Shown one piece after another: positions 3,001-9,000 of a DNA stretch of 20,443 nucleotides (position 1 is the stretch's first letter; the number at the start of each line of letters is the position of its first letter). Where the stretch lies: positions 1 to 20,443 of IMG/VR virus record IMGVR_UViG_2778261540_000005; one strand, given 5' to 3'. Source of the stretch: a virus (lineage: Duplodnaviria > Heunggongvirae > Uroviricota > Caudoviricetes). Made by a program: the position numbers.

Positions 3001-6000
3001 TGCTACCTATGAATACGAAGGATTCGGTATCGGTGCAACTTATGCGAAATCTGATCGTACCGACACTCAAGTTAATGCAGGGAAAGTTCTTCCTGAAGTA
3101 TTTGCTTCCGGTAAAAATGCAGAAGTTTGGGCCGCAGGTCTGAAATATGACGCTAACAACATTTACCTGGCCACTACCTATTCTGAAACCCAGAATATGA
3201 CTGTATTTGCTGATCACTTCGTTGCTAATAAAGCTCAAAACTTCGAAGCTGTTGCACAATATCAGTTCGATTTCGGTCTGCGTCCGTCCGTTGCTTACCT
3301 GCAATCTAAAGGTAAGGATCTTGGAGTATGGGGCGATCAGGACTTAGTCAAATATGTTGATGTAGGTGCAACCTATTACTTCAACAAAAATATGTCTACT
3401 TTCGTTGATTACAAAATCAACCTGCTTGACAAAAATGACTTCACTAAAGCACTCGGTGTAAGCACTGATGACATCGTTGCTGTAGGTCTGGTTTACCAGT
3501 TCTAATCTGATTACGAAAAAGATATGTTGCGGGAGGCTTTGCCTCCCCAACATATAAGTGGCTCCCTCAAGCCACTTCCTTTAGGAGCACAACCTTGCTT
3601 CTAACTATATAAACCTTCTGTTATATATTACCCTTTATTTTTGGGGGCGTTGCAACGCCCCATTTTTAATAACTTTTAGTAAACAACTGGCATATTAATT
3701 AGAGTTATTAACAACGATATCCATCTCTAACCGGATATCTAATGCCATTAACATCCCTTCAATTATACCCTCAGCCTTCTGTAACCTTTTCCCGATATAA
3801 CCATCAGAGCAGCAATGCTTACCTGCCAGTGACATGAATGTCATACCGACTACATAATAATCTACTAATAAATCGTGCAAATCGCTGTTGTTCTTTTTCA
3901 GACGGGCCATGCACCCGCAAATGATCATCGCGTCATCGTCACAACATTGCGGGCGAGATTTTACTTTTGAAGGAATTAATCCCTTAAAACCGGCGGCAAT
4001 GGACGACCAGGTCACATCTTCATGATTATTAGCCGCCCACGCTCCCCAACGCTCAAGAACCATCTGAATATCACGCATCAACTTACTCCACAAAAATCAG
4101 ACCAGAACGCCAATTACAAGCAAAAATCAACAAAACAGTATTAGTTGATTGTTATCTCTGACTTCATACTCCTGCTCCTGTCAGGGTTTTGGCGTAACTC
4201 TTCAGTATTCGGTAATCGGTCAAAACAGAACCGGGGAAACGATATAAGCGCAGACGCCCCCAGCGGTGGCGAAGAAGTTCTGCCATATAAAACTCAAACA
4301 TCATTCATTCCCCATTTCGGTGATGGTCAGTTCCAGCCTCCCACCTTTGGTAACAGGCATCTTCACAACGCGGTAATCAACGACTTGAGCATCATCCAGC
4401 CAGAAACCTGCTTTAGTGAGTGTGTCAAAAGCGGCTTTTTGCAGATTATCCAGGTCACGGCGACGGCGATCCGGCATGTGGCACTCAATGCGGATTTTCA
4501 CAGGCATAGCCAGGCCGATATCCAGCATTGCGTTTTTAATGATTCGGGCGACGTTATCGCGGTATGCCTGCCCCTCTGCGCTGACGTGCGTGCGCCCGCG
4601 ATTATGGCGGTAATAGCGATTATTGCTCGGAGGCCAGGGTAATGTGATGCTGTAGGTATTCACGCCTTAATAACCCCCTCTTTCAGCCAGATAACCTGTG
4701 TTCTCGCCATACCTTCCAGCGCGCATTCTTTTGCATATGCAGCATCGACAAAATGTGTGCGGCGGTCGATTTCGTCGTGGCAGGCAGAACATGCAATGGT
4801 GGCAATCAGGTCTGGCGGTTTGGTACCGGTGCCGCACAATCCAGTCAGCCGGATATGTGCCAGTACAGACGTTTCAGGGTTGCCATTACATACGCCAGGG
4901 ATTCTTACCTGGCATTCCCGACCACGCGCTGCTTTTCTCAAATCAGCCATGATTCCTCCTTGCTGCCAGTCGCAACCATTTTTTATCAACCAGGCTGGCG
5001 GTATATCCGAGCAGTGTTGGTATTTCGGAAGGCTTCAGCTCCGGTTTACGCTTACGACGATTTGGTACTCTGTAGATGTGTCCGTTCATGACACGAATAA
5101 GCGGTGTAGCCATTACGCCTCCTGCTTGTCGCGCAGCAGCTGGAACTCGCAGCTCTGCGGAATAGTCAGGTGGCAGCCAATATTCACCGCCCAGGCTTCA
5201 ACCTTACACAGGAAGACATACATCTCTCCGGTATCAAGATCGGAGGTATGGCGTAACGACTGGATAGTAGTGATTTCGCCGGTTACGACATCAACCAGGT
5301 CCTTGGTTTCATAACCGAGGTATGTGTGTTTGAGAGCATCTTTTACCCATGCTGAAGTAGCGAACGATTTCCCCCTGCTGATGAGGTATTCACTGATTTC
5401 GCTGTACCACATGTGGCTGAGTGCATTCTGGGAAAGACTGCGTTTCTCACGCCACGGTTTAAGCACCATGCGAAAGCATTTTCCGTTCTCCAGATAAGGC
5501 TGGATCTGCTGGCCGATAGCGGTGAAGTTACCGCGATGCAATTTGATGCCATCTTGTAGGAGGTTCACGATTCACCTCCGCAGAGGTCAAACGCTGGATG
5601 CAAAAAATCGCAGGTACATTTCTGCATCTGTGAAGGGAGAAGAGAGTTTGGATTGTATGTGCGCATAAACGTCCCCGTTTAGCGCAGAAGTCACCGGAGT
5701 TGTTCAGGCTCCGGTGACTTAATTATGACAAGTTGATTATGGAAAATCAAAGCTTGTCATCAGAACAACGAATAATTTAAAAACTCTATAATTTCTAAGA
5801 TTTTTTCACTTATCGCTGGAATGAAACGTGAAGCAAAATAGAGCCCCAAAAAAACCAATATTGAGTACGAAACCGTGATAGCGACTCTGTATTTTTTCTC
5901 GCCTCGCTTCACTCTCTCCCACTCAGTTTTAAGAACACTGGAACTATATTCAAAATACTGTCTGACCACATCTGTAATGTTAGATGAGCGATCCATTTTT

Positions 6001-9000
6001 AAAATGTAATCCTCAATGATTTTCAAAAGCAGAGACTCTTCATTAGTTAAGTTTTTACTGGATAACCTAAGCTTCACTTTTGCGGAAAGAAAATAAATTT
6101 TTCCAGCCACCTCAGGGAGCTTCTCAGGCGGAGTCGTGCGTAATTGTAAAAAGTTCTCCATCAATTCGGCTAACTCTTCCCTTAAACCATCTATCCACGC
6201 TTGCCGAAACTCAGATGTTTTATTCTCCTTAGTGATAACAAGCCCCACTCCAGCTGCAGCTGCGGCAATAATTGCGGCGACAACTGAGGCTATCCCTGCA
6301 TCCATAAATTACCCCTCAAAACAATATGAATATGAATATGATTCGATGTCTTCAGCAATTGAAAACTAAAACTCCCTGTAATGTCACATCTGCCCATGAA
6401 TGTGTTTTCTTCATACAGCTTTGCTGCAATATCTAAATCAGACATTAGTCAGCGGTTCTCCCGCGCCAGCGTTTGTTACTTTCTGATATTCTTTCTGTAT
6501 CAACGGATTCAACCTCACCTTCTGAAAACCTAACTGCATTAGCTTTAGCCATTGCCTTCCTAGCATCTTCTTCCGCCTGGCTAAAATGCACCTTCTTTCT
6601 TCCCTTGAAACTACCAACGCGAATTTTGGAAGAGGCCTGCGTCTTGTACTTGCTAATCCGTAATTGTGCCGCCAAATGGGCTTTTGCCTCGGTGCGGTTC
6701 GCTGGCTTCTTCTTTACTAATTCAAGGTCTAAATGGTACTGCTGCTCAGCTCTTAGTTTCTTCGGTTTCATAATATCACTCTCAAACAAAGTCCATTTAT
6801 CATAGAATAAAAGCCCTCTAAGAGCTTTGATTTGTATCTATGCTAATTCCCGTCAATTTGTTCTTCATTTTACCTCCAGCTGTTGTGCTGCTGCAGTGGC
6901 ATTCAATAGTTTTCCTTCTAAGCATCCTACAAAATCGGTGACGAGTCATGACCAGTTCACGTAGTGCAATGAAATTACTGCAATCTATTATGACGCAAAT
7001 GCGTCAATACTCGAATCAACTGATCATCCTGCCACGACTGAAATCTCAAATAGGCCGTTTCTCAAGTAAGAGATTTTGAATGCATTATTGGCTACTGAAA
7101 TAAAAAACCCAGCGCCAACTGGGTTCATATGAAATTTTTTTGTCATTTCCAATTGCAAGACTGTGAAATTTTTTCCACAACCTTATCAATCTCAGACAAG
7201 TCAAACTCAACTACTTGCATAGTTGATCCATAAGGTTCAAACCCAAAAATAGCTTTTTTATGCTTAGCCAAGGTCTTTATAAATTGTATTGGTTGTGGAG
7301 CAAATGCAGAATCACCGCCTTCCCCACCTCCCCAAACACTCTTGACCGGCTTTCCGCCATCTAACCGCACTGTAATTCTTGGGTTGTCCGAACCCATATA
7401 ATCATTGAATGATAAATAGGCATCTGTTTTGTTATCACTACAACGCAACACCAGTGAAGTTGCACGATCAGTACCTGCTTTGTTATATGAATCTGGTGAT
7501 AAATTAAGAGCCACAAAGTCAGTCTGGTCAGTCATTTTATTTATCTCAGACTTTGTTATCCACGGCCCTAACTTCTCTACACCAGCATTTGCTGTAAACG
7601 AGGCACTTATGACAAAGGCTAAAATAAATTTTCTCATAACCCTATCTCCTTGGATTTAAAGAACTAAATATTATCAAGTCTCTTGCCACTAGAAAACCCA
7701 CTTTATTTCCAAACTCTGACGGCATTCCTGAAAATCCGCTTCATACTCACTTGCCCCGCCCTATCATCCTGAGTAGCTAACCGTTAAACAAACGTTCGCC
7801 AGACCTTACCATCAATGACCAGGATTCCTGCCCGCGCCATTTTTGCCGCAGCCTGATTTATGCTGGTTAATGTCACACCTGTTGTCGCAGCAACGTCCGG
7901 CGCACAGAAGCTCTTGTGCGTCTCCAGATAATGAATAATTGCCTCTTTGCCCGTCATACAGTTGCTCCTTTCAGTCCGAACTTCGCTTTGATTTCTGCGA
8001 TCTTCGCCAGAGCCTGTGCACGATTTAGAGGTCTACCGCCCATGACAGGAAGTTGTTTTACTGGTTCAGGTATCGCCTCACCACGGTTAATTCGCGCGGT
8101 CATACAAGTCAGTTCATCGGCAGCCTTGCGCCGTAATTCCGCATCAGTCAGCGCATTGGCCCGCATGTTCTGATACAGGTTGGTAACCAACCAGTAGTGC
8201 GCGTTTGATTTCCATGGATAAGACTCTGCATCCGGATACAGGCCACGCTTCCGGCAATACTCGTAAACCATATCAACCAGCTCGCTGGCGTTTGGCAGCC
8301 CGGCAGTAACGGATGCTTCTTCCCGGCACCAGGCAACAAACTGCCCGGGTGATGGCAGGAATGGTCGATTCTGCCGACGGGCTACGCGCATTCCTGCGTT
8401 AACCTGTTCCATTGTGGTGATCCCGTTTTCCCGGAAAGCCAGAACCCACTGGCGGCGGATTTCGTTCAGTTCGTTCTGGTCCCGGTTAGCCAGGCTCGCC
8501 GGGAAAGTTGCCAGTAACTGGCTGAACACACCATTGATGATCTGCGCTACCTGCTGTACCTGCGGCTTTTCGTCGTACTGTTCCGGCATGTTGTTGGCGA
8601 TCCGACGCATCTGCTCACGGTCAAAGTTAATCATCTGTGCGGCGATGTTTTTCATAGATCCACCCCGTAAATCCAGTCTGTGTTTGTCAGGTCGAGTTTT
8701 GGTTTGCTAGCTGTCACGCCTGCCTGTTGCTTGTTACGGTTGATTTCGAGTTGGGTCCACTTGTCGCGGAGTTTGGCCGGACTTAGCACGTTACCGGACC
8801 AGAAGTTGTCCTGGCATGCCCAGCGGAACAGCACGCACATGTCGCGGTGGTTACGTCCGTCACGTTCACGCATCAGGCGGATATCGTTAGCCCACCCTGC
8901 AAAATTCGGTTTTCTGGCTGATGGCGCGATGGTCTTCACCATGTCAAACATCCACTCTGCGGCGGTCAGGTCTTCTGCTGTCCCCCACCTGCTGCCGCTC

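Follow-up and report, generated by a model that had tools for sequence, protein, structure and literature searches.

An apparent patchwork of accessory genes between ren and ylcH in a DLP12-like lambdoid prophage of Escherichia coli

Background

Mosaic module boundaries are well known in lambdoid phages, as in the morons of the HK97/HK022 type and in the mosaicism of the nin region. The present study concerns the interval between ren and ylcH, and the three accessory genes that it holds, in a 20,443-nucleotide (nt) stretch of viral DNA (IMG/VR record IMGVR_UViG_2778261540_000005, positions 1 to 20,443), hereafter called the window. The whole window is to all appearances an Escherichia coli DLP12-like lambdoid prophage, and two described elements serve as the main points of comparison. 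Prophage DLP12 of E. coli K-12 has the same backbone, with 97% identity from quuD to position 5751, and an equivalent slot, flanked by a defective ren on one side and ylcH-ybcN on the other; neither element carries slot cargo that is related to phage growth. The DLP12 cargo is however wholly different, and the K-12 ren is split by IS3 whereas that of the window is stopped by a nonsense codon. The isolated phage IdasGreatGrand (PP925829.1) is 96-97% identical to the window over P, a 57-codon ren and a gene for a signal-peptide protein, downstream of which an intact antirepressor-like gene and many small open reading frames (ORFs) stand in place of the genes for a basic and a two-transmembrane (two-TM) protein. 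No description of the three genes or of the slot was found in the literature on these protein accessions, the DLP12 slot or lambdoid defence hotspots.

A preliminary description of the window had proposed that ren is truncated at its junction with a single AT-rich block of three genes, brought in by recombination, which replaces the nin region and ends at a hairpin.

Results

The three genes were found intact on the minus strand, as first called, within a cargo stretch of 1.96 kb that runs from 5756 to 7712 (Table 1). Its GC content is 39.6%, against 48.5% in one flank (3695-5755) and 51.0% in the other (7713-10207), which bears out the sharp change in composition reported earlier. Only 0.3% of the equal-sized segments within the whole sequence are as AT-rich as the cargo, and the GC content at third codon positions is 0.32-0.46 in the cargo genes versus 0.49-0.62 in backbone genes. 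On the left, the junction lies at 7693-7713, with a BLAST breakpoint at 7713 against lambda, PhiR30_1 and K-12. On the right, a conserved inverted repeat, TTGATT-N6-AATCAA (5733-5750), immediately adjoins the point where similarity is lost, which is 5 to 9 nt beyond the two-TM stop codon. The cargo thus lies between backbone breakpoints that are common to related prophages and phages, and its arrival by recombination is upheld. The hairpin formerly placed at the end of the block (5688-5720) belongs instead to the conserved backbone, being common to K-12 DLP12 and more than 1,500 genomes; the cargo ends before it, at 5751-5755. The loop of the inverted repeat varies between prophages, and the repeat overlaps a promoter-like match, TTGATT-17-(TG)CATAAT (5750-5722, minus strand), that points towards ylcH-ybcN.

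This cargo appears to be a patchwork of at least three separately acquired modules (A, B and C, each with one of the three genes), with gene remnants at the seams. Module limits were drawn from pairwise DNA comparisons and tblastn. Module A, with the signal-peptide gene, extends from about 7712 down to 7065 or 6993, the breakpoints against E. coli GB089 and IdasGreatGrand, in which it is found at 97-98% identity; its end is marked by the final 28 codons of a gene of antirepressor type, and an intact gene of this kind occupies the same slot in IdasGreatGrand and in E. coli 2013C-3513. Module B (6408-6893), with the basic gene, shares 83% DNA identity with prophages in genomes labelled Citrobacter, Klebsiella and Enterobacter, and the homology to Citrobacter prophages ends at 6408, within a stub of a DNA polymerase III theta/HOT homologue (8 of its 13 residues identical). 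Module C, from 5756 to about 6407, holds the two-TM gene; DNA identity to an Enterobacter kobei prophage is 73% over 5501-6305, a similarity that extends from ybcN but stops at the ATG of the two-TM gene (6305). The modules are distributed independently: among 5,426 complete E. coli genomes, the module A gene occurs in 84, together with the short ren, and modules B and C in 15.

The three genes could also be taken together as a functional unit, namely a defence or conversion system encoded by an operon and gained in a single event. They are co-oriented, AT-rich and contiguous, in the 15 genomes they form a block that is 99.3-100% identical for all three genes, and stop and start codons overlap among the basic gene, a 51-codon ORF (6290-6445) and the two-TM gene. 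We nevertheless regard this as very improbable. Besides the unequal distributions (84 versus 15 genomes), the partners differ gene by gene in other prophages; a terminator and a 370-nt spacer containing a gene remnant part gene A from gene B; and the 51-codon linker is a meaningless ORF, a fusion artefact into which the truncated theta gene runs out of context. In addition, the two-TM family has no conserved neighbour, and no credible PADLOC match was found for the three proteins. The single block of the preliminary description thus gives way to at least three modules with separate histories and remnants between them. The related possibility of a conserved module in intact phages stands only in part, as IdasGreatGrand has the same 57-codon ren and a signal-peptide protein 100% identical to that of the window, but lacks the other two genes.

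The ren-ylcH interval itself seems to be a moron slot with varying accessory genes, placed where the replication module ends and the nin module begins. Of the 5,426 genomes, 2,832 contain the ylcH-ybcN boundary, and nearly all matches stop at 5751±2. Among the contents sampled from about a dozen slots, at least eight different ones were found between the same flanks. The slot is empty in lambda, where ninB directly follows ren. It holds emrE-ylcJ-ybcK-ybcL-ybcM in K-12; emrE-ylcJ'-ybcK, a P22AR-C gene and a 118-aa ORF in another prophage; an antirepressor-like gene, a HEPN gene and a hypothetical gene in 2013C-3513; genes for a 186-aa 'acyltransferase' and a 150-aa 'lipoprotein', after an intact ren, in PhiR30_1 and 2012C-4431; and MT-A70', a phosphoribosyltransferase-like gene and NADAR in PK5074. 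Further slots hold truncated remnants. As stated earlier, none of the cargo proteins of the window is a ninB-ninG product or a protein of the K-12 DLP12 slot.

Compared with lambdoid morons, the cargo shows the same presence/absence polymorphism with variable content at the same breakpoints, the same deviant, AT-rich composition, breakpoints at gene ends, and a terminator-like site after gene A only, 17 nt past its stop codon. Unlike in them, no promoter-like site was detected before any of its three genes. A second copy of the ylcH-hairpin segment (5589-5725 in the window) was seen inside the slot of IdasGreatGrand (locus L003, 3091-3228, 85.5%) and of 2013C-3513 (locus L007, 7222-7339, 94%). 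Such a repeated linker could drive cassette exchange by homologous recombination.

The ren ORF of 57 codons was retrieved as described; it is not cut at the junction. Its codon 58 is TAA, as in IdasGreatGrand, where the intact ren of lambda and PhiR30_1 has TAC (Tyr58), and the breakpoint lies 71-94 nt past this nonsense codon, since ren homology persists to 7713 (BLAST) or 7693 (local alignment). It ends at nt 266 of the 291 of lambda ren, the last roughly 8 codons being replaced. The ORF matches the Ren-like family PHROG 142 (E 5e-20) and PHROG 7054 (57/57 positions) and its ATG overlaps the P stop, so that homology and position are those of Ren, without an intact frame of some 96 codons. 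In RefSeq, 7689-7957 is entered as a ren pseudogene ('frameshifted; internal stop'). Nucleotide identity to lambda is 88% over codons 1-57 and 67% after the stop, which fits relaxed selection on the distal part. Because ren homology runs past the stop, the junction between cargo and backbone falls at the very 3' end of ren, as is usual for a module boundary. Inactivation of ren was apparently separate from cargo entry, through point mutations (the nonsense codon and a frameshift).

The 164-aa module A protein carries a classical signal peptide (MRKFILAFVISASFTANA, cleaved before G), in agreement with the first assignment. Its comparators are VasI/TagO (PF11319) and IalB (PDB 3dtd), themselves without known function, from which it differs in being phage-borne, outside a type VI secretion system (T6SS) cluster and below the NCBIfam equivalog cut-off. 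RefSeq names it TagO, and it reaches 26.7 bits with the Pfam VasI model, whose gathering cut-off is 26.5; both points speak for a genuine type VI secretion accessory component. The margin is however only 0.2 bits, over profile positions 78-184 (the C-terminal half), and the equivalog model TIGR03360 gives 14.4 against a cut-off of 124.2. Among the contexts examined, no VasI-like copy lies in a T6SS cluster, all of them being prophage or phage. A TagO/VasI identity is thus extremely improbable, and it would say little about activity, the function of TagO/VasI being listed as unknown in a 2026 review (PMC13584744).

Homologues of this protein at 55% identity occupy a tail-region accessory slot of Klebsiella prophages. 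Others, at 26-28% identity, are found in Klebsiella, Citrobacter, Pasteurella, Brucella and Acinetobacter phage records, one of which is a P2-like member of the Peduoviridae with the domain near the prophage end. In the VasI-like subfamily (25 sequences, at least 55% identical), 43 columns are invariant; a cysteine pair is among them, as would suit a periplasmic protein. PDB sequence searches with genes A and C returned noise only.

The module B protein (108 aa) is highly basic, as noted earlier, with an isoelectric point (pI) of 10.3 and 27 K+R versus 14 D+E. It matches PHROG 14068, a family that we take to derive from prophage data, and has 44 homologue clusters; the labelled ones are from Enterobacterales, apart from two oddly labelled records. 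Elsewhere the basic gene always precedes a DNA_pol3_theta (HOT type) homologue, with overlapping stop and start codons, and never the two-TM gene. In the window, a complete theta domain (PF06440, about 75-85 aa) is not present, only 13 N-terminal codons being left. The constant theta coupling elsewhere hints, weakly, at a replication-associated accessory role, and the best identity to be proposed for the basic protein, albeit a doubtful one, is that of an orphaned partner of a theta/HOT homologue.

A rival explanation would place the block, or at least the basic protein, in the phage replication or recombination machinery, as partner of a theta/HOT-like subunit, rather than among accessory cargo. 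Homologues of the basic protein are without exception encoded in the replication-nin region, with translational coupling to the theta homologue, the Klebsiella and Pantoea two-TM homologues also adjoin theta homologues, and the pI is that of a strongly basic protein. On the other hand, the theta gene of the window has been cut to 13 codons while the basic ORF has stayed intact, lambda, PhiR30_1, K-12 DLP12 and IdasGreatGrand all lack the basic gene, and the family is small and almost entirely from Enterobacterales prophages. We consider this explanation quite improbable. No known replication or recombination function, which the preliminary description had named as a possible counter-argument, was found for any of the three genes.

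Hydrophobicity in the module C protein (181 aa) peaks over residues 1-27 and again over about 140-166, consistent with the two TM segments first assigned to it. In the AlphaFold2 (AF2) model, TM1 runs into a four-helix bundle that returns into TM2, and because a K/R-rich stretch precedes TM2, the positive-inside rule suggests that the bundle is cytoplasmic. The family comprises 333 homologue clusters in a 90% database; a profile search gave 4,855 clusters at 50% identity (representative library), 768 of them with E ≤ 1e-30. Its members come from Proteobacteria, Acidobacteria, Nitrospira, Verrucomicrobiota and Bacteroidota. The 17 invariant columns fall into two motifs, KExKxSEFRQxW..R immediately following TM1 and LKxEWxRVKxGE immediately preceding TM2. 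The two-TM protein has no match among Pfam and NCBIfam models and no credible one in PADLOC, and a scan of longer members for fused domains yielded only collagen repeats and stray matches.

Two candidate identities were rejected. A histidine-kinase or chemoreceptor sensor would be indicated by the four-helix match only, without a HAMP, kinase or signalling domain; because identity to the QseE, NarQ and Tar/Tsr sensor modules is only 4-13%, the likeness is a fold analogy and not homology, and the topology of the two-TM protein would be opposite to theirs. PADLOC matches of family members (LeoBC, PD-T4-6, RT-associated SLATT and CARF-HEPN; E 1e-4 to 0.03) were set aside because they are scattered, inconsistent between members and located on coiled or TM stretches; LeoBC was weakly matched by 7 of 45 members, with a best E of 1e-4.

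A conserved partner gene was sought in 80 species-level two-TM loci, and no neighbour family occurred in more than 4 of them. The commonest neighbours, each found at 4 loci or fewer, are of generic kinds: LysR regulators, integrases, IS66, DUF7946/7947 and an MtlR-like protein. Since there is no conserved neighbour, the protein presumably works alone or with host factors. In prophages, two-TM homologues occupy the same replication-to-nin slot, after a Trypsin_2 gene or its remnant in Enterobacter and after a dATP/dGTP pyrophosphohydrolase gene in Klebsiella. The Uliginosibacterium copy has an ordinary chromosomal context. In a Rhodoferax metagenome-assembled genome (locus L022, 3848-5740; also L023 and L024), a 35%-identical homologue occupies the first cassette position beside a divergent integron integrase, which scores 456 bits with NF011946 (cut-off 435). 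There, a GTTAGAC core lies upstream, on the attI side, and an attC-like site, GTCTAAC...GTTAGAG, follows the gene, from which we conclude that this homologue is an integron cassette. No homologue of the basic or the two-TM protein was found by tblastn among 50,697 phage records.

Two further observations concern these loci. In E. kobei, one prophage has a 270-aa Trypsin_2 serine-protease gene before the two-TM homologue (locus L009, 690-1502), and in another only the last 94 Trypsin_2 codons precede it (locus L008, 4653-4937), another example of a deletion scar in the same slot. In Shewanella waksmanii (locus L028, 1440-9159), the homologue lies between two unannotated genes for proteins of about 580 aa and a Gabija-like pair made of an OLD-family TOPRIM ATPase and a UvrD-type helicase; this locus looks like a defence island.

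Taken together, the profile of the two-TM protein is that of a self-contained mobile accessory gene and is compatible with a role in phage exclusion or abortive infection, which it does not prove. T4 Imm, P22 SieA and HK97 gp15 are small prophage-encoded inner-membrane exclusion proteins, and like the two-TM protein they are small membrane proteins from single accessory phage genes; the likeness is one of functional analogy only. It is conceivable, though we would call it unlikely rather than likely, that the two-TM family consists of stand-alone mobile inner-membrane proteins acting alone against incoming phages, by superinfection exclusion or membrane-level abortive infection.

Could the cargo be inert debris in a decaying prophage, its ORFs intact only through recent insertion? 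The slot does hold a ren pseudogene and two gene remnants, no promoter was detected, and the E. coli copies of the cargo are near-identical and therefore silent on selection. Copies from other genera are informative in this respect. The ratio of nonsynonymous to synonymous substitution rates (dN/dS) is 0.08 for the two-TM gene against the E. kobei copy, with dS saturated, and 0.10 for the basic gene against the Citrobacter copy; genes B and C are thus under purifying selection. The invariant motifs of the two-TM family hold across phyla, the VasI-like subfamily keeps its 43 invariant columns with the cysteine pair, and an isolated phage carries module A. These points make the debris explanation unlikely.

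The backbone on both sides is well conserved. Its genes were called from the RefSeq annotation of the identical stretch of E. coli EC77 and its flanks, and from Pfam and NCBIfam scans. EC77 matches the window over 5500-8100 at 100% identity, and 14 further complete E. coli genomes do so at 99.3-99.9%. The rightward early operon is encoded on the minus strand, in the order cro-like, YdaT/cII-like, O, P, ren pseudogene, the three cargo genes, ylcH-like, ybcN, ninE, ybcO, rusA, ylcG and quuD, and the P region (7713-8737) shares 92% DNA identity with lambda. Contrary to the preliminary description, the nin region has not been replaced: ybcN, ninE, ybcO, rusA, ylcG and Q follow in order downstream of the replication genes, intact and of DLP12 type, directly after the cargo. 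From 5751 down to 3501, identity to K-12 DLP12, phage PhiR30_1 and other prophages is 97%, and Pfam NinB, YbcO and Phage_antitermQ are all matched.

Other accessory genes were observed in the window. An intact OmpC/NmpC-type porin gene (2408-3505, plus strand) lies between quuD and the lysis genes; in K-12 DLP12, IS5 follows or interrupts the counterpart of this gene. Two AT-rich genes (39% GC; 11383-11856 and 11853-12785, plus strand), which come immediately after the cI-like S24 repressor gene and so occupy the position of lambda rexAB, match the PADLOC candidate defence system PDC-M63 (component A, E 7e-43, also Pfam DUF6932; component B, E 4e-42). A 354-aa DndB-family protein (15504-16568, plus strand; Pfam PF14072, E 4e-46; PADLOC DndB, E 4e-37) is encoded in the leftward early operon, after exo/bet/gam. 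EC77, identical to the window from P to ybcN, has DUF1382 and TraR/DksA at the latter position, and the window is thus a different mosaic from EC77.

Table 1. Positions of the ren-ylcH cargo, its seams and its flanking backbone in the window
Feature	Position	Strand	Support
YdaT/cII-like gene	9668-10207	-	
O	8652-9671	-	
Replication protein P, upstream backbone flank	7954-8655	-	Pfam Phage_lambda_P, E 9e-62
ren' ORF, 57 codons, ends in TAA	7784-7957	-	Aligned with ren of lambda, PhiR30_1 and IdasGreatGrand
Decayed rest of ren, lambda codons 58 to about 88, 1-nt deletion	7693-7783	-	67% identity to lambda
Module A gene, putative secreted VasI/IalB-fold protein, 164 aa (RefSeq 'TagO')	7143-7637	-	
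Intrinsic-terminator-like hairpin with T-run	7105-7126	-	Consensus scan: 9-bp stem, then TTTTTTATTT
Remnant, last 28 codons of antirepressor-like gene (P22AR C-terminal domain)	6978-7061	-	tblastn 63-64% identity, E 1e-7
Module B gene, basic 108-aa protein	6445-6771	-	PHROG 14068, E 4e-64
Stub, first 13 codons of DNA polymerase III theta/HOT homologue	6407-6445	-	MSDLDIAAKLYEE versus MSDWNIAAKPQED
Module C gene, 181-aa inner-membrane protein (predicted TM1, four-helix bundle, TM2)	5760-6305	-	AF2 pLDDT 91.5
Right cargo junction	5733-5755	.	Similarity lost at 5751-5755 in all compared prophages/phages
Backbone hairpin, 11-bp perfect stem, 9-nt loop, no T-run after it	5689-5719	-	Fold -23.3 kcal/mol, z -3.8 versus shuffles
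Intact DLP12-type nin region, ylcH-like through quuD	3695-5666	-	RefSeq annotation of identical EC77 stretch
ylcH-like ORF, 33 codons	5565-5666	-	
ybcN	5113-5568	-	Pfam NinB; NCBIfam PRK09741, 276 bits
rusA	4301-4663	-	

Discussion

We propose that serial module exchange and deletion at a bounded hotspot built the cargo from modules A, B and C, and hold this to be probable. At the seams, successive recombination and deletion events would have left two gene ends, the 3' one from the antirepressor-like gene and the 5' one from the theta homologue, and ren would have lost its function independently, by the nonsense mutation and the frameshift. The three genes are presumably transcribed with the rightward early operon, as suggested by their same orientation.

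Several points weigh against reading the cargo as a set of working morons in such a slot. PADLOC-DB 2.0 gave no match for genes A and C and a stray Cas4 match, at E 0.012, for gene B. The structural matches are unspecific, being to four-helix-bundle sensor domains (4-13% identity) and to IalB, which has no known function. No convincing sigma-70 promoter was found before any of the three genes, candidate sites being no commoner than in shuffled sequences; because the scan gave no promoter, expression in the lysogen, the classic moron property, is only presumed. Finally, the slot contents come from a sample and not from all 2,832 boundary-carrying genomes. As to what the cargo does, the foremost suggestion, and a tentative one, is that the secreted and membrane proteins might act at the envelope, facing phages or competitors, for instance in superinfection exclusion.

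The feature is ordinary lambdoid phage mosaicism, and a new instance of an accessory slot. It corrects the first reading of the locus into a textbook case, a slot at a module boundary filled by recombination. About half of the complete E. coli genomes contain the ren-ylcH slot, a hotspot with sharp limits. With genes as varied as emrE and those for HEPN, NADAR and methyltransferase proteins among its contents, it could be mined systematically, like the P2 and P4 hotspots before it. The main lead is the two-TM family, very large and conserved across phyla, without a model or a partner gene; mobile on prophages and integrons and without a partner, its protein would be a cheap candidate for a single-gene phage-exclusion test.

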